This document shows positions 581 to 40,673 of a DNA stretch of 40,673 bases, piece after piece (the first letter of the stretch is position 1; each line of letters starts with the position of its first letter). The notes beneath the pieces are model-generated. The model saw only the letters and a list, made by a program, of their open reading frames with translations. It was not told where the DNA came from and did no database searches. A program made the translations under genes and the position numbers. Source of the DNA: Escherichia phage KM02; the sequence record PQ179042; one strand, given 5' to 3'.

Positions 581-708
581 GTACCACATCAACACGAAAC
601 AACGGTGACGACCAACACTAAAACGGTCTACCTGAAGTCCTCTGACTGAAGGGAATGTTCTTTAACAATCTGGATAAACTCTTAATGTGCGCCGATAGCG
701 ACTAACTA

Positions 709-740
709 CAGGGCCTTTGAGTCTACATCTGAAGGCCCTG
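709..740 (+). promoter_or_regulatory. Leader hairpin (9-bp stem cagggcctt/aaggccctg), candidate RNase III processing site
   Basis: Perfect inverted repeat 709-717 / 732-740, followed by a conserved block gactgatagtcactaact-aaagga that recurs at 1058-1080. Confidence 0.45.
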
Positions 741-763
741 ACTGATAGTCACTAACTTAAAGG

Positions 764-1018
764 ATGGACACTATGAAACACTTAAGCACAATCACTAATC
801 ACAATGAAGTATTCGTGAATACTAAAGGTTATGCGTGGATTCAACTTAAAGAGATGACAGGAGCGCGTCACCGTGTGGTAGTGCGCAAGGTCTCAAGCAA
901 GCCGTTCAGCAACTACAGCGTAGATACTGTGCGTATAGACAACGAGACCTACCTGATAGACTCGCAGATAACCGTGAGTCCTACAGCGGGCGTCTCAGCT
1001 CCTTATTTCGCTAACTGA
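764..1018 (+). CDS. Hypothetical early protein (gene 0.3 position; not Ocr-like in composition)
   Basis: ORF in track; SD aagga at 759-763 favours the internal ATG at 773 as the true start; not acidic like T7 Ocr. Confidence 0.5.
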   Translation: MDTMKHLSTITNHNEVFVNTKGYAWIQLKEMTGARHRVVVRKVSSKPFSNYSVDTVRIDNETYLIDSQITVSPTAGVSAPYFAN

Positions 1019-1032
1019 GAGTGATTAACTAC

Positions 1033-1057
1033 AGGTCGTTAGACTTATAGCGGCCTG
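1033..1057 (+). promoter_or_regulatory. Second leader hairpin (7-bp stem with one G-U pair), candidate RNase III site
   Basis: caggtcg 1033-1039 pairs with cggcctg 1051-1057; followed by the same conserved block plus SD as at 741-775. Confidence 0.4.
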
Positions 1058-1088
1058 ACTGATAGTCACTAACTAAAGGATAGACAAT

Positions 1089-1811: not shown

Positions 1812-1961
1812 ATGGTAACTTATGGTCTCTGCCAGCACCACGTCACCAACGCCCGGCTTATGGTCAAGACCGGGCAGTTAAACCACGATGCGACTATGCG
1901 CTATCTGAAAGCGGTCTACGAGGGCCGCAAGCGTATACACGACAGTTTACACGCTGAGTGA
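1812..1961 (+). CDS. Small hypothetical protein (49 aa)
   Basis: ATG at 1812 preceded by gaggtgagg; not in the ORF track because it is under 60 aa. Confidence 0.25.
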   Translation: MVTYGLCQHHVTNARLMVKTGQLNHDATMRYLKAVYEGRKRIHDSLHAE

Positions 1962-2028
1962 CAGACGATAGGTCATCTAACTGATAGGTGGCCTCAAAGA
2001 TTATCACTTAAATTGATAGGGGTTAACT

Positions 2029-2820: not shown

Positions 2821-5502
2821 ATGAGCGTCATCTCTATTGAAAAACACGACTTCTCTGATGTGTCGAACGCCATTGAGCCGTTTAACCTGCTGGCTGACCA
2901 CTACGGGCAAGACCTTGCAGTCAAACAGCTTCAGCTTGAGCACGAGGCATACACTGAAGGCGAGCGACGTTTCATCAAGAACCTTGAGCGCCAGACTGAG
3001 CGCGGGGAACTGGCAGACAATCAGGTCGCCAAGCCTTTGATGCAGACTCTGGTCCCTAATATTGCGCAAGCCGTCAGGGAGTGGCATGAAGGGCCAGACG
3101 GGAAGCTGTCAACCTCTCGTCCTAGCGTAGCGTTCACCGTGTTGAGCACTGAAGAGAAGGCCGTCAAGGACCGCTCTATGCGCATCTCCTGTGAGTCTGC
3201 TGCGGTTATCATACTGAAGGTCATACTCTCCAAGCTGGTCAAGCCTGAAGGGATACCGATTACACCGATGGCCTCAGCGATAGGTCGCACACTTGAGGAC
3301 GAAATCCGCTTCGGTCGCATCCGTGACAAGGAGAAAGAGCACTTCAAGAAGGCGATAGCTGATAACCTGAATAAGCGGGCCGGGGCGTCCTACAAGAAAG
3401 CCTACATGCAAGCGGTCGAGGCATCCATGCTGGAGCAAGGCCAACTGGAAGATGCGTGGGGGACTTGGAGTCCGACCGAGGCTGTCCACGTTGGAATCAA
3501 GATGCTGGAGATTGTCATCCAGTCCACACAACTGGTCGAGCTTAAGCGTTACGGTGCTGGCAATGCAGCGGCTGACGTTGAGATGGTCCACCTGTCAGAC
3601 TTCTGGGTCAAGAAGATGGCACAACGAGGATTCAGCCTTGCGGGTATAGCTCCAGTCTACCAGCCTTGCGTCGTTCCACCTAAGCCGTGGACTGGTGTCG
3701 TAGGTGGTGGGTACTGGGCCAAAGGACGCAGACCATTACCACTGATTCGCTTAGGGTCTAAGTCTGCGGTAGCACGCTACGAAGACGTGTATATGCCTGA
3801 AGTCTATGACGCTGTGAACATCATTCAGAATACACCTTGGAAAGTGAACAAGAAGGTTCTGGAAGTGGTGAACATGGTCGAGAAGCTGAACAACACGCCT
3901 ATTGATGACATACCTCAGATGGAACCGCTGAAGCCTGAGGACTATGCGGGTGAGACTGAAGATGAACTCAAGGCATGGAAGAAGGCTGCTGCTGGTATCT
4001 ACCGCCGAGAGAAGGCACGGCAGTCACGCAGATTGTCACTGAGCTTTATCGTTAACCAAGCGAACAAGTTCTCTCAGTTCAAGGTCATATGGTTTCCGTA
4101 CAACATGGACTGGCGCGGTCGCGTCTACGCTGTGCCGATGTTCAACCCTCAAGGCAACGACATGCAGAAAGGTCTCCTTACTCTGGCAGTCGGCAAGCCT
4201 ATTGGCGCTGATGGTTTCAAGTGGCTGAAGGTCCATGGTGCAAACTGTGCGGGTGTCGATAAAGTCACCTTCGAGGAGCGCATCAAGTGGGTGGAAGACA
4301 ACCACGACAACATCATGGCTGCTGCTAAAGCACCGATGGACAGCATTGAGTGGTGGGGCAAGTTAGACTCTCCGTTCTGTTTCCTCGCGTTCTGCTTCGA
4401 GTATGCTGGCGTAATGCACCACGGCCTGTCTTACTCCTGCTCGCTGCCGATAGCGTTCGATGGGTCCTGCTCTGGTATTCAGCACTTCAGTGCGATGCTT
4501 CGTGACCACATCGGTGGACATGCAGTAAACCTGACGCCATCCGGTAAGGTACAAGACATCTACCGCATTGTGTCTGACCGCATTGAGGAGGAGCTTAAAG
4601 TCCTGCTGATTAACGGTACTGACAACGAGATGGGCACTCACGAGGATAAGAAAACTGGTGAGATTACCGAACGTATCAAGCTGGGGACACGAGAGCTGGC
4701 CCGTCAGTGGCTGACATACGGTATGTCACGCAAGGTCACTAAGCGTTCAGTCATGACTCTGGCCTACGGGTCGAAAGAGTATGGCTTCGCAGACCAAGTT
4801 TACGAGGACATCGTGATGCCAGCGATTGACTCAGGGTCTGGCGCTATGTTCACCGAGCCAAGCCAAGCGGCTCGCTTCATGGCTAATATGATTTGGGAAG
4901 CTGTGAGTGTGACCGTAGTTGCTGCGGTAGACGCTATGAAGTGGCTTCAGGGTGCCGCCAAGCTGCTGGCTGCTGAAGTGAAGGACAAGAAGACTGGAGA
5001 AATCCTGAAGCCTTGCCTTCCGGTACACTGGGTAACACCTGATGGTTTCCCGGTCTGGCAGGAATATCGCAAGAAGGATACCACTCGTCTGAACTTGATG
5101 TTCTTAGGGTCATTCAACCTTCAGCCTACCGTCAACAGGGGTACGAAGAAAGAGCTGGACAAGCACAAGCAGGAGTCAGGCATTAGCCCGAACTTCGTCC
5201 ACTCACAAGATGGTAGCCACCTACGCAAGACTGTAGTCCATACTCACCGCAAGTATGGCGTGATGTCGTTCGCAGTGATTCACGATAGCTTCGGGACCAT
5301 CCCGGCTGACGCTGAGTATCTGTTCCGTGGGGTCCGTGAGACTATGGTCGAGACCTACCTAGACAACGATGTGCTGCTTGACTTCTACGAGCAGTTTGAA
5401 TACCAGCTTCACGAGAGCCAGCGCGATAAGTTGCCAGAGCTTCCGAAGAAAGGTAAACTGAATATCGAAGACATCTTGTCTTCAGACTTTGCATTCGCTT
5501 AA
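2821..5502 (+). CDS. 1: DNA-directed RNA polymerase, single-subunit T7-type
   Basis: 893 aa; extensive identity to recalled T7 RNAP motifs (FSDV...PFN.LADHYG, WFPYNMDWRGRVYAV, HGANCAGVDK, ending DFAFA). Confidence 0.98.
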   Translation: MSVISIEKHDFSDVSNAIEPFNLLADHYGQDLAVKQLQLEHEAYTEGERRFIKNLERQTERGELADNQVAKPLMQTLVPNIAQAVREWHEGPDGKLSTSRPSVAFTVLSTEEKAVKDRSMRISCESAAVIILKVILSKLVKPEGIPITPMASAIGRTLEDEIRFGRIRDKEKEHFKKAIADNLNKRAGASYKKAYMQAVEASMLEQGQLEDAWGTWSPTEAVHVGIKMLEIVIQSTQLVELKRYGAGNAAADVEMVHLSDFWVKKMAQRGFSLAGIAPVYQPCVVPPKPWTGVVGGGYWAKGRRPLPLIRLGSKSAVARYEDVYMPEVYDAVNIIQNTPWKVNKKVLEVVNMVEKLNNTPIDDIPQMEPLKPEDYAGETEDELKAWKKAAAGIYRREKARQSRRLSLSFIVNQANKFSQFKVIWFPYNMDWRGRVYAVPMFNPQGNDMQKGLLTLAVGKPIGADGFKWLKVHGANCAGVDKVTFEERIKWVEDNHDNIMAAAKAPMDSIEWWGKLDSPFCFLAFCFEYAGVMHHGLSYSCSLPIAFDGSCSGIQHFSAMLRDHIGGHAVNLTPSGKVQDIYRIVSDRIEEELKVLLINGTDNEMGTHEDKKTGEITERIKLGTRELARQWLTYGMSRKVTKRSVMTLAYGSKEYGFADQVYEDIVMPAIDSGSGAMFTEPSQAARFMANMIWEAVSVTVVAAVDAMKWLQGAAKLLAAEVKDKKTGEILKPCLPVHWVTPDGFPVWQEYRKKDTTRLNLMFLGSFNLQPTVNRGTKKELDKHKQESGISPNFVHSQDGSHLRKTVVHTHRKYGVMSFAVIHDSFGTIPADAEYLFRGVRETMVETYLDNDVLLDFYEQFEYQLHESQRDKLPELPKKGKLNIEDILSSDFAFA

Positions 5503-5520
5503 CAGGAGAGAGAGAGAGCT

Positions 5521-5736
5521 ATGAAATTTGCACACAAGCATACTGGCATTAATGGTGGGACTCAAATCGTGACCGTAACAGAACACAACGGCAAGGGTCT
5601 GGTGAAGACCACGGTCATCCCTACCGAGATGTCCAAGCAGCTTAACATCCCGTTCAAGACTCTTGTAGATCTGGTCGAGTCCAGCCACGAGAAGTACCTG
5701 AAGGACGCAGTGTCCAAACTGGAGCAGACCAAATGA
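5521..5736 (+). CDS. Hypothetical protein
   Basis: 71-aa ORF with SD aggag; follows a (GA)6 run at 5506-5518. Confidence 0.45.
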   Translation: MKFAHKHTGINGGTQIVTVTEHNGKGLVKTTVIPTEMSKQLNIPFKTLVDLVESSHEKYLKDAVSKLEQTK

Positions 5737-5811
5737 CAGACCTACAGTTGCTGGCCTTGTGGCTGGGAGCACTCGCAGTATTCACTTTAATCCAACGCAG
5801 AAGAGGTTAAC

Positions 5812-5834
5812 CCTAAACTATCACTATAGGATTA
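5812..5834 (+). promoter_or_regulatory. Phage-RNAP promoter (T7 phi1.1 analogue)
   Basis: ctaaactatcactatagg at 5813-5830. Confidence 0.75.
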
Positions 5835-5874
5835 GACTCAAGGTCATGACTCAAAGTCGTGGCCTTCATGATTA
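5833..5874 (+). promoter_or_regulatory. Conserved RNase III-site-like motif (copy A; T7 R1.1 position)
   Basis: tagactcaaggtcat-N11-gtggccttcatgatta; near-identical copies at 13420-13461 and 37474-37512. Confidence 0.5.
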
Positions 5875-5907
5875 ACCCTAAATAAACACTACTGGAGATT
5901 TAACCGT

Positions 5908-6087
5908 ATGTATCAGAATACTATCAACTTCGAGCGCATCCGTGAACGTCAGCAGACTGAAGGCTACATACCGAAGGGCCGCAAGCTGAACAAGACTAAA
6001 CGTGGCGGTGGTGTCAAAGGCGCTTTCCGTAATGCTGAAGGTAAAGACTCTATGATCAACCAAGAGAAGTACTTCGTAGGAGCGTAA
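5908..6087 (+). CDS. 1.1: gp1.1-like small basic protein
   Basis: 59-aa ORF with KGRKLNKTKR motif matching T7 gp1.1 as recalled; SD ggag. Confidence 0.55.
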   Translation: MYQNTINFERIRERQQTEGYIPKGRKLNKTKRGGGVKGAFRNAEGKDSMINQEKYFVGA

Positions 6088-6090
6088 GCC

Positions 6091-6342
6091 ATGAGTAAAC
6101 GTTGGTTATTCGACGCATCACCGAGCCAGTGGTCAGCGTTAGGCCGGACTCACCGCGAGATGAGTGAGGCAGGACTTGATGTCAAAATGGATGGCTCGCC
6201 GTGCTCCGGAAAAACTCTGGTAAGAGTAATTGAAGCAGACGGTGTGGGGCTTCTGGTCTCCAGAGAATTTACCGAAGATGAAATCTTTAGCTGTGAGCAA
6301 TGGTGCTTACGACAATTGAACGCTTATAGGAGCTGGAAATAA
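6091..6342 (+). CDS. 1.2: gp1.2-like protein (host dGTPase inhibitor family by position)
   Basis: 83 aa, right size and position, ends in WK like T7 gp1.2; SD aggag. Confidence 0.45.
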   Translation: MSKRWLFDASPSQWSALGRTHREMSEAGLDVKMDGSPCSGKTLVRVIEADGVGLLVSREFTEDEIFSCEQWCLRQLNAYRSWK

Positions 6343-7397
6343 TGACTACGACTATTAAAACTAACCCGCACCGCGCTGTAGATTACTCTGAGTCTGGCGT
6401 TAAGAAGGCTTTGGAAGCTGCTGGGTCACTGGAAGCTGAAGTGAAGTATGACGGTGTGCGGTTGAACCTTCCGGTCTTCCCTACTGGTGAGACTCAATGG
6501 TTGAGCCGTGAGTCCAAAGAGCTTCCGGCCCTAAGCTGGCTGGGCACATCCGGTGACGACATCGGTTCTGCCAAGGCTAGCGACTGGCGATGGTTCCTTA
6601 AACAGGCTGGATACGAAGGTACTGGCCTGATGATTGACGGCGAGGTGATGGTAAAGGGTGTAGACTTCAACACATCCTCAGGACTTATTCGCACGAAGTG
6701 GCTGAAGCCTGATAACCTAAAGTTCAATGACGTAAAGTTTGACGAGATGCCTCGTAAGTCTACAGGCGCTAAGTCTAAACTTCCGTTCCTACTGGCAGCC
6801 GAGCATATCCAAGTGGTTGTATACGGGATTATTGACCTTAACGTCATCCTAGACCCAAAAGCTGAAGGGCCTATCCACAGCGTAACGAGACTGAAGGCCG
6901 AAGCTGTCGTCCCTCTCCTCCAGAAATACTCCCCGGAAATCGACTGGGTGCTATCTGAGAGTCATACAGTGTTTAGCTTAGACGAGCTTACTGACTTGTA
7001 TGAGAAGAAGAGAGAAGAGGGCCATGAGGGTCTGGTAGTTAAAGACCCACTGGGTAAATGGAAGCGTGGCAAGAAGTCAGGCATGTGGAAGATGAAGCCA
7101 AGCGAAGAGGCGGATGGTCATGTTGTGCGCCCTGTGTGGGGTACGGATGGGTTAGCCAACGAAGGCATGGTCATCGGATTTGACGTTATGCTTGAGAACG
7201 GGATGGAGGTCTCCGCAACTAACATTAGTCGCGCCCTTATGTCCGAGTTCACGGAGAATGTTAAGTCAGACCCTGACTACTACAAGGGGTGGGCTTGCCA
7301 AATTACCTACATGGAGAAGACACCAGATGGAAGCCTCCGACACCCGTCATTCGACCAATGGCGGGGGACTGAGGACAATCCAACGGAGAAGATGTAA
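6342..7397 (+). CDS. 1.3: ATP-dependent DNA ligase
   Basis: 351 aa with the ligase adenylation motif KYDGVR; T7 gene 1.3 position. Confidence 0.9.
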   Translation: MTTTIKTNPHRAVDYSESGVKKALEAAGSLEAEVKYDGVRLNLPVFPTGETQWLSRESKELPALSWLGTSGDDIGSAKASDWRWFLKQAGYEGTGLMIDGEVMVKGVDFNTSSGLIRTKWLKPDNLKFNDVKFDEMPRKSTGAKSKLPFLLAAEHIQVVVYGIIDLNVILDPKAEGPIHSVTRLKAEAVVPLLQKYSPEIDWVLSESHTVFSLDELTDLYEKKREEGHEGLVVKDPLGKWKRGKKSGMWKMKPSEEADGHVVRPVWGTDGLANEGMVIGFDVMLENGMEVSATNISRALMSEFTENVKSDPDYYKGWACQITYMEKTPDGSLRHPSFDQWRGTEDNPTEKM

Positions 7398-7579
7398 TGA
7401 TAATTTTTGACCAAGGCATTTGGAAGGTATGGCAACATCCACACTTACAGGTATTCCACATCCTGAAATGGTCTGAGGGAGATGACCCATCCTCTTATGG
7501 GAGCAAGTGGGATTACTTCATACAGAAAGAGTGTTGGAGTATACTCGAGGTAAAGGCATATCTTCAAGCTAACATGTAG
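7397..7579 (+). CDS. Hypothetical protein lying between the ligase stop and a displaced ligase 3' remnant
   Basis: 60-aa ORF; its ATG overlaps the ligase stop (taATGa). Confidence 0.4.
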   Translation: MIIFDQGIWKVWQHPHLQVFHILKWSEGDDPSSYGSKWDYFIQKECWSILEVKAYLQANM

Positions 7580-7582
7580 TAA

Positions 7583-7657
7583 CAATGGCCAGTACTTCGT
7601 CACCCTAGCTTCAAGTGCTGGCGCGGGACGGAAGATAACCCGACCATTAAGAGCTAA
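7583..7657 (+). pseudogene. Displaced, divergent remnant of a ligase C-terminus
   Basis: Encodes QWPVLRHPSFKCWRGTEDNPTIKS, versus the true ligase end SLRHPSFDQWRGTEDNPTEKM; codons differ mainly at synonymous positions. Confidence 0.6.
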
Positions 7658-7666
7658 CTAAATGTC

Positions 7667-7700
7667 AACCCAGTGGTCTTATGACTGCTGGGTTTCTTTG
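7667..7700 (+). terminator. Rho-independent terminator (T7 TE analogue)
   Basis: Stem aacccag (7667-7673) / ctgggtt (7688-7694) followed by tctttg. Confidence 0.55.
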
Positions 7701-7739
7701 CTTATGCTAGCAAGCTATCGTTTGGGCCACCAGCTAGAC

Positions 7740-7762
7740 CCTAAGCTATCACTATAGGACAA
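7740..7762 (+). promoter_or_regulatory. Phage-RNAP promoter (phi1.5-like)
   Basis: ctaagctatcactatagg at 7741-7758; one mismatch to consensus. Confidence 0.65.
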
Positions 7763-7788
7763 CCCTAACCGACCAAAGGAGAAACCTT

Positions 7789-8043
7789 ATGTCTAAAAAC
7801 TTAATGTTCAACCGATTTACTAGAAGCTTCCACCTGTCGCATAGCCCATTCAGCTTCCATAAAGCTAATCAACCATTACCCCGCTTTGGTAAGACAGTGG
7901 CTCTGTCTCCTACAGTTCATGCGCTAGTCACCCGCAAGTCTATGCTGAATGCTATGGATAAAGAACAAATTGATGTACCTGTGGTCGTTACAAAATGGCC
8001 TCGCATTAAGCTGGCACTTCTGGTAATTAAGGAGGCGCTCTGA
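7789..8043 (+). CDS. Hypothetical protein
   Basis: 84-aa ORF with SD aaggag. Confidence 0.5.
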   Translation: MSKNLMFNRFTRSFHLSHSPFSFHKANQPLPRFGKTVALSPTVHALVTRKSMLNAMDKEQIDVPVVVTKWPRIKLALLVIKEAL

Positions 8044-8554: not shown

Positions 8555-8709
8555 CTGATGTTGAGAAGAAATACATCGTGGAGCTTGAGGGTTGCGTTCA
8601 GTCCTTCGAGGTTCCGGTGTACGCAAAGTCTCTTGAAGAGGCTACCCTGAAGTCCCAAGAGTATGAGGACGCTGGTTTTGTGGTCGGACGAATCCGTCCT
8701 GAGACCTAA
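8551..8709 (+). CDS. 2: Gp2-like inhibitor of host RNA polymerase
   Basis: 52 aa; SFEVPVYA...[10 protein letters not shown] matches T7 Gp2 SFEVPIYA...AGFEVTRVRP as recalled; SD aaggag. Confidence 0.7.
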
Positions 8710-13216: not shown

Positions 13217-13417
13217 GTGCGATTGGAAGTCACCATACGGAGGACACCATTAGTGTTTAAGAAACTTAAAGCTCGCTACCATCGGTTCATGTACAAATGG
13301 TGGAGCGATGAAGCAACCTGCCTGTCGAACATTCTTGGAGAACAGCGGTTCGAGTCTAAGGCATGGAAGAAAGCTAACCGTAAGTTTATGTACCACTTCT
13401 TACGTACAGACTTATAG
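13217..13417 (+). CDS. Hypothetical protein (probable GTG start at 13253)
   Basis: ORF in track; SD acggagga lies 7 nt before the GTG at 13253. Confidence 0.35.
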   Translation: MRLEVTIRRTPLVFKKLKARYHRFMYKWWSDEATCLSNILGEQRFESKAWKKANRKFMYHFLRTDL

Positions 13418-13419
13418 GT

Positions 13420-13461
13420 ATAGACTCAAGGTCATTCACATCGAGTGGCCTTTATGATTAG
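13420..13461 (+). promoter_or_regulatory. Conserved RNase III-site-like motif (copy B; T7 R4.7 position)
   Basis: tagactcaaggtcat-N9-gtggcctttatgatta immediately upstream of gene 5. Confidence 0.5.
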
Positions 13462-13480
13462 ACTAAACGGAGGATTAACC

Positions 13481-21204: not shown

Positions 21205-22089
21205 ATGTCTCAATCAGTTTATGCCGAGTTCGGCGTTAGCTCTAATGCAATCACTGGTTCTGTTGAGGACCTGAACGAACACCAGAAGTCTATGCTTGAA
21301 CAGGACGTAGCTGTTCGTGATGGCGATGACGCTATTACCTTCAAGCAACTGGAAGCTGAAAATGAAGAGGCTACCGAAGAAGACGAGAACGTCGAAGAGA
21401 CTGAGGGTGCTGAAGACAACGAGTCCGATGACGAAGAGTCTGAGACCGATGGTGAGCAACCTGAGTTCGTCGAACTTGGTGATGCACCGAAAGAGCTGAC
21501 TGAAAGTGTCACCGCTCTGGATGAAAACGAAGCTGCATTCGACGACATGGTGTCTTCTGCTGTAGAAGCTGGCAAGGTCACTGCTGATGAAATTATTGCT
21601 ATCAAGGCTGAATACGCCAAGGACGGTAAGCTGTCTGACGCATCCTACGCTAAGTTGCAGGAAGCAGGTTACACCAAGCGTTTCGTAGATTCGTTTGTCC
21701 GTGGTCAGGAAGCTCTTGCTGAACAGTATGCTGCTGGTGTGGTTCGCTACGCTGGTGGTGCTGAACAATTTAATCGCATCCTGTCACACCTTGAGTCCAA
21801 CGACCCGTCAACTCGTGAAGCACTGGAAGCTGCTATCGTTCGTAAGGACATTGCGACTACCAAAGCTCTTCTGAATCTGGCTGGCAAGACTCTTGGTAAA
21901 GCTGTAGGTGTTAAACCTCAGCGTACCATCACCACTCAGGCTAAACCTGTGGTCGCACCTAAGGCTCCTCAGACAGAAGCATTCAGCTCCAAGGATGACA
22001 TGATTAAGGCTATGAGTGACCCGCGATACCTGCGTGACGCTAAGTACACGATGGAAGTTCGCGCTAAGGTAGCTGCCTCAAGCCTGTAG
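21205..22089 (+). CDS. 9: Capsid assembly (scaffolding) protein
   Basis: 294 aa, highly acidic, correct position; SD aaaggag. Confidence 0.88.
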   Translation: MSQSVYAEFGVSSNAITGSVEDLNEHQKSMLEQDVAVRDGDDAITFKQLEAENEEATEEDENVEETEGAEDNESDDEESETDGEQPEFVELGDAPKELTESVTALDENEAAFDDMVSSAVEAGKVTADEIIAIKAEYAKDGKLSDASYAKLQEAGYTKRFVDSFVRGQEALAEQYAAGVVRYAGGAEQFNRILSHLESNDPSTREALEAAIVRKDIATTKALLNLAGKTLGKAVGVKPQRTITTQAKPVVAPKAPQTEAFSSKDDMIKAMSDPRYLRDAKYTMEVRAKVAASSL

Positions 22090-22090
22090 G

Positions 22091-22113
22091 ACTAAACTAT
22101 CACTATAGGGAGA
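22091..22113 (+). promoter_or_regulatory. Phage-RNAP promoter (phi10 analogue; full CACTATAGGGAGA)
   Basis: ctaaactatcactatagggaga at 22092-22113. Confidence 0.8.
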
Positions 22114-22215
22114 CCAAGAGAAAGACTCAAGGTTTCCCTATTACTTCAGTCCATACGGATTGGGCGTACAACAAGTAATAAACTTTATCTTTCAATTGAA
22201 TAGGAGAATTATCAT

Positions 22216-23390: not shown

Positions 23391-23393
23391 TTG

Positions 23394-23434
23394 AAACCCC
23401 TTGGGTGCCTTCGGGTGCCTGAGGGGTTTTTTTG
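23394..23434 (+). terminator. Tphi-like terminator for phage RNAP
   Basis: About 16-bp stem with a ttcg tetraloop (23410-23413) followed by T7; resembles T7 Tphi. Confidence 0.75.
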
Positions 23435-37015: not shown

Positions 37016-37210
37016 ATGATTGAGTTAGACTTCAAGAATGAGGTCCTTAAAGCCTCTCCTATAGTCGGGACCGCTGCGGCTGATGGTGCCAGTCGGTTCT
37101 TCTTCGGACTCACACTTAACGAATGGTTCTACGTTGCAGCTATCGCGTACACCGTTGTCCAGATTGGGGTGCTAGTCTACAAAACGATTAAAGGAGGTGG
37201 TAAAACATGA
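37016..37210 (+). CDS. 17.5: Class II holin
   Basis: FFGLTLNEWFYVAAIAYTVVQIG is near-identical to the T7 gp17.5 core. Confidence 0.88.
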   Translation: MIELDFKNEVLKASPIVGTAAADGASRFFFGLTLNEWFYVAAIAYTVVQIGVLVYKTIKGGGKT

Positions 37211-37470
37211 CGCAGATGGACTTAGAGAAGTTCCTCTTGATGCTAGATACTGAACGTGCTAGACTCATGCTGCAAGACCTGCGGGATGACTCTAAGCGTT
37301 CTCCTCAGCTCTACAACGCCATTGAGAAGCTTCTGGCTCGTCACAACTTTGTGTTAAGCAAGGTGTCTGTTGACGAGAAGACGCTCGCTGATATGGAGGC
37401 CCTGAACGCAGAGTATGATAAGGTGCTCTCAGCGAACGAGGATAATGACACCGGGTATGGTGTCCAGTAA
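37207..37470 (+). CDS. 18: Terminase small subunit
   Basis: LMLDTERARLMLQDL...RSPQLYNAIEKLLARH matches T7 gp18. Confidence 0.88.
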   Translation: MTQMDLEKFLLMLDTERARLMLQDLRDDSKRSPQLYNAIEKLLARHNFVLSKVSVDEKTLADMEALNAEYDKVLSANEDNDTGYGVQ

Positions 37471-37473
37471 GTG

Positions 37474-37512
37474 TTAGACTCAAGGTCATCTATTGGTGGC
37501 CTTCATGATTAG
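37474..37512 (+). promoter_or_regulatory. Conserved RNase III-site-like motif (copy C; T7 R18.5 position)
   Basis: tagactcaaggtcat-N6-gtggccttcatgatta between genes 18 and 18.5. Confidence 0.5.
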
Positions 37513-37562
37513 CACTAACGTAGGTGACTATACGTGAATTCTTTTAAAACAGGAGGGCAACT

Positions 37563-38000
37563 ATGCTCAAACTTTTACGACAGGCCGTCCCTTGGCTGGT
37601 GGCAGGACTCCTGTTCTGTTCAGGCTACTGGGTGGCAGACAATAAGTGGGAGGCGAAAGTAAACGATGAGTACATCACGAAACTTGAGGCACGAGAAAAT
37701 CAACGGGCTGCTGTCCAAGGTGAAATCGACAAAGTGTCAAAAGACTGGCAAGACAAGATGTCCGCGCTGGAAGGCTCTACTGATAGGATTATTGCTGACC
37801 TTAACCACGATAACAAGCGGCTGCGCGTCCGAGTCAACACCTCAGGTCTCACCGAGTCAGATGTCAGTCGATGCTTCCCTAATGGTAGAGTCGAACTACA
37901 CCCAGAAACTTCTAAAAGTCTTATCCGAATAACTCAGGAGGCGGACCTTAAGGAGAAGGCGCTTCAGGACACAATAAGGAGGCTCCAAGGTGTTAAGTGA
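37563..38000 (+). CDS. 18.5: Rz-like i-spanin
   Basis: N-terminal TM segment; ALEGSTDRIIADLNHDNKRLRVRV matches T7 gp18.5. Confidence 0.88.
   Translation: MLKLLRQAVPWLVAGLLFCSGYWVADNKWEAKVNDEYITKLEARENQRAAVQGEIDKVSKDWQDKMSALEGSTDRIIADLNHDNKRLRVRVNTSGLTESDVSRCFPNGRVELHPETSKSLIRITQEADLKEKALQDTIRRLQGVK
37666..37932 (+). CDS. 18.7: Rz1-like o-spanin lipoprotein, embedded in the +1 frame of gene 18.5
   Basis: PRWKALLIGLLLTLTTITSGCASES (lipobox) and SVDASLMVESN match T7 gp18.7. Confidence 0.82.
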   Translation: MSTSRNLRHEKINGLLSKVKSTKCQKTGKTRCPRWKALLIGLLLTLTTITSGCASESTPQVSPSQMSVDASLMVESNYTQKLLKVLSE

Positions 38001-40497: not shown

Positions 40498-40673
40498 TCT
40501 CACAGTTCAAGAACCTCAAGTCTCCCCATAGGCCCTCTTTCAGTCAGACCAAAGGCCCTACCCCAGTCTATCATAAGGTTGGACCGATGGTCAAGACTTC
40601 AGGTCAACGATAGGTAGAGGCTATGGCTTAGGGAAGGACGATAGGTTGGGACTATGGGTCTTCTTTGAGTCTC
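40498..40673. repeat. Right direct terminal repeat (176 bp), identical to 2-177
   Basis: Exact sequence identity with the left end, read directly. Confidence 0.95.

Follow-up and report, generated by a model that had tools for sequence, protein, structure and literature searches.

Candidate RNase III processing hairpins of the T7 R1.1, R4.7 and R18.5 type in the genome of Escherichia phage KM02

RNase III signals of T7 and T3 and the KM02 genome

The early transcript of bacteriophage T7 is a precursor of ~7 kb that receives five cuts from host RNase III, and the middle and late precursors are processed as well; in R1.1 RNA the cut falls at a single phosphodiester, and RNase III has been reported to be non-essential for T7 growth (PMC4858673). 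Internal loops in such substrates confine cleavage to one strand, the resulting 3' hairpin guards against 3'-5' exonucleases, and T7 R1.1 yields a 28-nt upper-stem product and contains a U.C pair by the scissile bond (PMC1540722). Cleavage of T7 RNA at CCUUUAU^GA agrees with the length of this product and with the U.C pair. A G-C pair in the proximal box beside the scissile bond has been reported to act as a catalytic antideterminant (PMC1540722). In the reference sequences compared directly here (T7, NC_001604; T3, NC_003298), the form (A/C)CUCAAGG..(stem-loop)..CUU(U/C)AUG(A/G) is common to the T7 sites R1.1, R4.7, R18.5, R0.3 and R0.5. The curated T3 record carries ten stem_loop features labelled "RNase III recognition site", all sharing the same core sequence; R1.1 abuts promoter phi1.1 on its downstream side, R4.7 sits just ahead of gene 5, and R18.5 separates gene 18 from gene 18.5. 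The cut coordinates of the five core-bearing T7 sites (R0.3, R0.5, R1.1, R4.7 and R18.5), which we take to be those of Dunn & Studier 1983, fall without exception on (U/C)AU^G in the actual T7 sequence. For RNase III sites in K1F-like phages, a literature search returned reviews only.

The window analyzed here, the whole 40,673-nt record of Escherichia phage KM02 (PQ179042), is a complete, terminally redundant Kayfunavirus (K1F-like) genome of ~40.6 kb. Across the window it matches Kayfunavirus phages at ~91–93% identity, and its last 150 nt (40524–40673) recur from base 28 (region 1–180); the record therefore spans the entire genome, direct terminal repeat included, and its left end holds ~27 extra bases relative to that repeat. 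Protein identity to T7 amounts to 62% for gp1 (RNA polymerase), 56% for gp5 (DNA polymerase), 48% for gp18, 46% for gp18.5 and 64% for gp19 (terminase). In this genome, three copies of a repeated motif are most probably (with a probability of roughly 0.88) RNA hairpins in rightward polycistronic transcripts, orthologous to the T7/T3 RNase III signals R1.1, R4.7 and R18.5. Transcription through the sites and their cleavage, including its position and consequences, we infer from homology with T7.

Three hairpins and their transcriptional setting

The three copies lie on the + strand at 5833–5874, 13421–13460 and 37475–37511 (sites 1, 2 and 3) and follow the pattern TAGACTCAAGGTCAT-N(11/9/6)-GTGGCCTT(C/T)ATGATTA. 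An initial annotation of this DNA had described near-identical motifs at three places, and this is borne out: in a whole-genome search the exact 15-mer TAGACTCAAGGTCAT starts at 5833, 13421 and 37475, always on the + strand, GTGGCCTTYATGATTA starts at 5859, 13445 and 37496, and for the combined pattern AAGGTCAT-N(4-14)-GTGGCCTT three matches were counted vs 0.00 expected from 100 dinucleotide shuffles. The inter-arm spacers of 11, 9 and 6 nt were also given correctly, and the coordinates were exact for the first copy, with the starts of the second and third (13420 and 37474) off by one base. Outside the spacer the copies differ by one C/T alone, and this is the sole internal-loop position that varies throughout the family (U in 57% and C in 40% of 92 distinct relatives). 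Concerted evolution of the three copies was considered and rejected, since the shared core is conserved family-wide and purifying selection is sufficient to explain their likeness. An Rfam search gave no match in the whole genome at the gathering threshold and none around site 1 at E values up to 10; Rfam appears to be without a family for T7-type RNase III sites.

Each copy is non-coding, lies on the transcribed strand and is syntenic with its T7/T3 counterpart. The first is found past the gene 1 region, directly behind a phage promoter and upstream of ORF 5908–6087, the counterparts of which are called 1.1 in phages CR44b and EcoDS1 and 1.15 in K1F; a comparison of this ORF with T3 gp1.1 detected no similarity. 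The second lies 25 nt upstream of gene 5 (ATG 13481), and the third lies between gene 18 (stop 37470) and gene 18.5 (ATG 37563), its hairpin ending 44 nt before the latter. The placement initially proposed, before genes 1.1, 5 and 18.5, therefore agrees with the gene map for genes 5 and 18.5, while "gene 1.1" holds as a positional name only. ORF 13308–13457 (+ strand, 49 aa), which corresponds to gp4.4 in the K1F annotation, crosses the 5' arm and loop of site 2; it either overlaps the hairpin or is a spurious call.

A predicted phage RNA polymerase promoter (5810..5832, + strand; consensus CTAAACTATCACTATAGG, +1 at ~G5829) abuts site 1, and the region initiated from it is the 5' arm of the site 1 lower stem. 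The consensus occurs at 9 positions on the + strand vs 0.09 expected, in CR44b and EcoDS1 the segment matching 5810..5832 bears a promoter annotation, and promoters predicted by this consensus alone are found upstream of all three sites. A promoter directly before site 1 reproduces the arrangement of T7 phi1.1A/R1.1 and T3 phi1.1/R1.1. Beginning within the 3' arm of the site 1 lower stem there is also a degenerate second promoter copy (5875–5895, + strand; ACCCTAAATAAACACTACTGG), with two mismatches in scored positions and TATAGG changed to TACTGG. The layout of promoter, site 1 and degenerate promoter mirrors T7 phi1.1A-R1.1-phi1.1B, except that the counterpart of T7 phi1.1B is here only degenerate. 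The 5' flank of site 2 was considered as a decayed promoter and rejected, as it shares only TATAGG with the promoter consensus.

The location of the hairpins in intergenic regions would also suit intrinsic terminators or pause hairpins, and their likeness to one another might be no more than a chance repeat. A terminator would combine a G+C-rich hairpin with a T-run, and no T-run stands downstream of any of the three sites; a terminator scan of 5400–8000 returned only the TE-like hairpin at 7667–7694, the Tphi-like hairpin being located at 23393–23433. Chance is excluded by the shuffles together with the conservation of the motif in hundreds of phages, and we give hardly any credence to this group of explanations. 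On the RNase III reading, the sites should be reached by transcription, and no TE-like or Tphi-like terminator (7667–7694, 23393–23433) intervenes between a promoter and a site.

The two terminator-like hairpins, both on the + strand and followed by T-runs, sit where T7 has TE (past the ligase region) and Tphi (past the capsid gene), and no other 60-nt fold in the genome is as stable as the one at 23393–23433 (-28.8 kcal/mol). A further stable hairpin (22106–22140, + strand; UAGGGAGACC..GGUUUCCCUA), just downstream of the promoter at 22089–22109, is reminiscent of the stem-loop at the 5' end of T7 phi10 transcripts.

On folding, which the initial annotation had proposed as a check, each copy adopts the architecture of T7 R1.1: a lower stem of 8–9 bp, an asymmetric 4/5-nt internal loop (ACUC / (C/U)AUGA) and an upper stem of 9–11 bp. 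The site 1 hairpin, equivalent to R1.1 (5826..5882, + strand; motif core 5833–5874), consists of the lower stem UAGGAUUAG/UUAACCCUA, the internal loop ACUC / CAUGA, the upper stem AAGGUCAUGAC/GUCGUGGCCUU and the loop UCAAA, and folds at -20.2 kcal/mol (z -4.3). Site 2, equivalent to R4.7 (13414..13468, + strand), has the upper stem AAGGUCAUUC/GAGUGGCCUU and folds at -13.3 kcal/mol (z -2.7), the lower stem being absent from the MFE fold; this stem is weakened by A13420, which produces an A.G mismatch where K1F, EcoDS1 and CR44b have a C that pairs with G. Site 3, equivalent to R18.5 (37468..37519, + strand), starts at the gene 18 stop codon, is formed by the lower stem AGUGUUAG/UUAGCACU and the upper stem AAGGUCAUC/GGUGGCCUU, and folds at -19.3 kcal/mol (z -4.6). 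The irregular hairpin typical of RNase III signals in the T7 group (Studiervirinae) is thus recovered in MFE and centroid folds and in the covariation described below. In a genome-wide MFE scan with 60-nt windows, sites 1–3 are no outliers (z = -2.0, -0.2 and -2.1), and folding energy by itself therefore does not single them out. Stability is lower for the antisense folds than for the sense folds, at -17.6, -8.4 and -7.1 vs -20.2, -13.3 and -19.3 kcal/mol, and the conserved U.G wobbles become C.A mismatches on the opposite strand.

Family membership and covariation among relatives

The likeness of the arms to T7 R1.1, put forward in the initial annotation, is confirmed by the actual T7 genome, in which 5861–5884 fits the strict pattern AAGGTCAT-N-GTGGCCTT. 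A covariance model built from 11 T7/T3 sites only (model R2) and run over the KM02 genome with filters off scored site 3 at 56.5, site 1 at 52.7 and site 2 at 49.4 bits (E 1e-11 to 1e-9), and nothing outside the family scored above 13.2 bits. This model is blind to KM02, and its scores of 49–57 bits, together with T3 annotations in the same contexts, uphold the proposed identity of the three positions with R1.1, R4.7 and R18.5, and they recover the core ACUCAAGGUC...GGCCUU(U/C)AUGA in all three. A first model (R1) gave 63.9, 66.7 and 64.5 bits for sites 1, 2 and 3; as calibrated on T7 and T3, it scored known sites left out of it (R6.5, R1.3 and R1) at 18–38 bits, with noise at or below 15.4.

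The two models also match three diverged hairpins in the early region, all on the + strand and with the same architecture as sites 1–3. The first lies before the first early ORF, 764–1018 (695..756; 25.1 bits with model R1 and 26.8 with model R2; fold -25.6 kcal/mol, z -4.7), and its core, ACUACAGGGCC...GGCCCUGACUGAU, is like that of the T7 site R1 (ACUACAGG..CCUGACUGAU). The second lies between ORFs 764–1018 and 1089–1277 (1018..1073; 33.0 and 33.2 bits, respectively; fold -23.3 kcal/mol, z -4.7), and the third between ORFs 1812–1961 and 2029–2193 (1955..2011; 26.4 and 23.2 bits; fold -18.9 kcal/mol, z -3.1), the latter with a core, AUAGGUCAUC...GGUGGCCUCAAAGAUUAUCAC, like that of T7 R0.5. 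Together with the three canonical copies, these matches bring the family in KM02 to six members rather than three.

The first two early hairpins have a near-identical 3' flank (736–775 and 1055–1091, + strand) that runs into the RBS and start codon, CTGACTGATAGTCACTAAC(T)TAAAGGAT(G/A)GACA..ATG, and looks like a duplicated cassette of processing site and RBS. Two other candidates were discarded: a sequence at 2749–2800 that resembles the T7 site R1, follows closely on the promoter preceding gene 1 and contains ACTCAAGGTCT has no model match and an insignificant fold (z -0.17), and a + strand regular-expression match at 8584–8611, inside the gene 2 region, is supported by neither covariance model.

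The case for the structure rests on covariation. In a structure-free MAFFT alignment of 16 sites from four genomes, 93.4% of cells are paired, vs at most 48% when the partners are slid, and double changes occur in 10 pairs, including 7 of the 9 lower-stem pairs. A scan of viral_contigs with the loose pattern ACTCAAGG-N(10-34)-CTTYATGR was dropped since the matches listed were mostly chance ones in unrelated contigs, and relatives were therefore gathered through neighboring genes, without use of the hairpin sequence, by gp19 (80 loci) and gp5 (80 loci, +/-10 kb); gp18.5 as a query yielded 13 loci only. A regular-expression scan of the relatives' loci was noisy, with 22 chance matches on the minus strand, and the covariance-model results were used instead. 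The model found 47 matches in the gp19 loci and 217 in the gp5 loci, 264 in all, every one on the + (coding) strand and at the R18.5, R1.1/R1.3, R4.7 and R6.5 positions, so that the motif search in relatives suggested at the outset returns hairpins at the corresponding places. Among the distinct sequences of these relatives (33 and 92, ~125 together), 95.1% and 93.3% of cells are paired, vs at most 52% with slid partners. These alignments were collected with the model and fitted to it, and their counts refer to sequences rather than to events; they hence lean to the structure and corroborate it rather than prove it. Across all alignments, 10–12 pairs show double changes, chiefly in the lower stem and the apical stem, and six upper-stem pairs next to the loop are near-invariant, as are the loop bases. 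A lack of structural covariation among relatives had been named as grounds for abandoning the RNase III assignment, and the pairing of 93–95% of cells, vs at most 52%, speaks strongly the other way.

The sites are also conserved within Kayfunavirus. The promoter and site 1 are 99–100% identical in relatives with flanking genes 85–96% identical, and site 2 is 94–98% identical in relatives whose flanks reach ~85%. A hairpin of the R4.7 type precedes gene 5 in 21/21 Kayfunavirus-like loci, and a match at the R18.5 position is present in 21/21 close relatives and in 46 of the 80 gp19 loci overall. K1F, EcoDS1 and CR44b have three copies each in the same places, and in their records, where promoters or genes are annotated, none of the three sites is. 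For site 3, just 3 of 551 matching phage records reach 95% identity across the site, and its apical stem-loop is unlike that of most Kayfunavirus relatives. The segment 37490–37511 combines a short CUAUUG apex with CAUGAUUAG, the corresponding sequences of K1F, EcoDS1 and CR44b being UACUAUAUGUA and UAUGGUUAA.

The presence of three identical arms of 15–16 nt at module boundaries raises the question of a role at the DNA level, be it as points of crossover when co-infecting T7-like phages exchange modules, as landmarks for homing endonucleases or as elements of a replication origin, in which the RNA fold would be incidental. In many relatives identity to KM02 drops across site 3, from 93–95% in gene 18 to 74–77% in the 5' half of gene 18.5, cassettes are inserted beside the sites in EcoDS1 and CR44b, and the primary replication origin of T7/T3 lies near R1.1 (T3 rep_origin 5682–5758). 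However, compensatory changes keep the pairing intact, and the G.U wobbles work on the sense strand only; such sense-strand-specific compensatory pairing points to selection on RNA. Furthermore, arms of 15–16 nt are short for homologous recombination, the drop in identity is placed at or near the hairpin and gene 18.5 has further internal breaks, and insertions beside intergenic regions are to be expected anyway. A DNA-level role in place of an RNA one is thus very unlikely.

The comparison of 37207–38000 with loci L141–L161 shows the sharp drop in identity across site 3 in many close relatives and the opposite in two, which indicates a putative mosaic junction at or near the site 3 hairpin, with further breaks inside gene 18.5. 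EcoDS1 (L140, 5568–6056) and several phages with split BLAST matches hold a gene 1.05 of ~470 bp upstream of the promoter and site 1, and in CR44b (L003, 11851–12252) site 2 and gene 5 are separated by an HNH homing endonuclease gene.

Selection on RNA could also be exerted by something other than RNase III, with the hairpins acting as an exonuclease barrier, as a site for another host or phage protein or in the translational control of the downstream gene. The 31-nt core, unpaired loop bases included, is conserved far beyond the needs of RNase III, with loop positions 84–100% conserved save for the one variable position, and the elements are more conserved than the neighboring genes. T7 gp0.7 protein kinase phosphorylates and stimulates RNase III. 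No gp0.7 kinase homolog was found by tblastn over the whole KM02 genome (best E 2.5), the early ORFs (335–2723) all match PHROGs of unknown function, and KM02 combines this lack of a kinase homolog with fewer RNase III-type sites than T7. A phage without the stimulating kinase, and the reported dispensability of RNase III for T7 growth (PMC4858673), would be in keeping with a cleavage-independent role. On the other hand, the sites are direct orthologs of established T7 RNase III substrates, with 8 upper-stem bp identical to those of R1.1, and T7 R1.1, too, has the conserved loop and is cleaved there (PMC1540722, PMC4858673). Any second function would, moreover, come on top of cleavage and not supplant it, and we regard an RNase III-independent role as quite unlikely.

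Because the core is conserved beyond what RNase III requires, loop bases included, and more strongly than the neighboring genes, a second role in addition to processing is conceivable, in which the 31-nt core would serve as a crossover point for mosaic exchange between co-infecting T7-like phages or as the binding site of a second factor. We put this forward tentatively and hold it to be rather improbable; such a role would fit the break in identity at site 3 and the presence in site 3 of the site 1 3' arm, neither of which demonstrates it.

Predicted cleavage and relation to known substrates

In the RNase III model, the host enzyme would bind the quasi-continuous helix of each hairpin, and the internal loop would restrict it to a single phosphodiester cut on the 3' side, at (C/U)AU^GA, after T5869, T13455 and T37506. 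The predicted cuts, T5869/G5870, T13455/G13456 and T37506/G37507, would leave the upstream mRNA with a protective 3' hairpin, and the downstream mRNA would acquire a 5' end that lies 38, 25 and 56 nt ahead of the following start codon at sites 1, 2 and 3, respectively. Transcripts from the promoter adjacent to site 1 (+1 at ~G5829) would lose a leader hairpin of ~41 nt. The predicted upper products measure 31, 29 and 26 nt, or 12, 11 and 10 pairs, to be set beside 28 nt (11 pairs) for T7 R1.1 and 26 nt for T7 R0.3. As judged by sequence comparison only, the hairpins have box sequences that would suit RNase III binding and the at least ~10–11 pairs that a substrate needs between scissile bond and loop.

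The sites look real and functional; though unannotated, they are an ordinary component, to be expected in a relative of T7. RNase III sites of the T7 type have been known since the 1970s–80s, and the findings consequently carry no conceptual novelty; what this analysis contributes is the tally of six sites, an independent test by model, evidence from covariation and predictions of where the cuts fall. Their main use lies in annotation and engineering, as the six marked sites give the likely boundaries of mature mRNAs in Kayfunavirus phages, which serve in phage therapy and engineering work. Marking the sites also cautions against calling small ORFs across hairpins, ORF 13308–13457 being a case in point.

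The closest described counterpart of site 1 is T7 R1.1 (~5847–5900; the "R1.1 RNA" model substrate), which shares its position after the gene 1 region, with a promoter just upstream and a small gene before 1.2 and ligase downstream. The upper-stem 8 bp that border the internal loop (AAGGUCAU/GUGGCCUU in T7 R1.1) are identical, the 4/5 internal loop is the same (ACUC / UAUGA in T7), and the T7 lower stem also has one mismatch. The lower stems themselves differ in a compensated manner, UAGGAUUAG/UUAACCCUA in site 1 vs GAGGGACAA/UUGACCUUC in T7 R1.1. At the apex, site 1 has UCAAA on an 11-bp stem, whereas T7 R1.1 has GCAA on 10 bp, and the first 3' internal-loop base is C in sites 1 and 3 vs U in T7 R1.1.

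Site 2 has the core and fold of T3/T7 R4.7 in common, and T3 R4.7 likewise stands immediately before gene 5; T7 R4.7 precedes gene 4.7, whereas KM02 is without that gene. T3/T7 R18.5 lie between genes 18 and 18.5, overlap the gene 18 stop and adopt the same fold as site 3, whose upper stem is one pair shorter than that of T7 R1.1 and equal to that of T7 R0.3. Where R18.5 of T7, T3 and K1F has ...UAUGG(A/U)U..., site 3 has CAUGAUUA, identical to the 3' arm of KM02 site 1.

Generic E. coli RNase III substrates, such as rRNA precursor stems and the hairpins of lambda or cellular mRNAs, likewise present a helix of about two turns, with recognition expected to proceed through the proximal and distal boxes (PMC1540722). 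Most cellular substrates are, however, cut on both strands and share no common sequence, whereas the T7-type family, to which the KM02 hairpins most probably belong, is set apart by a conserved core and by an internal loop that restricts the cut to one strand.
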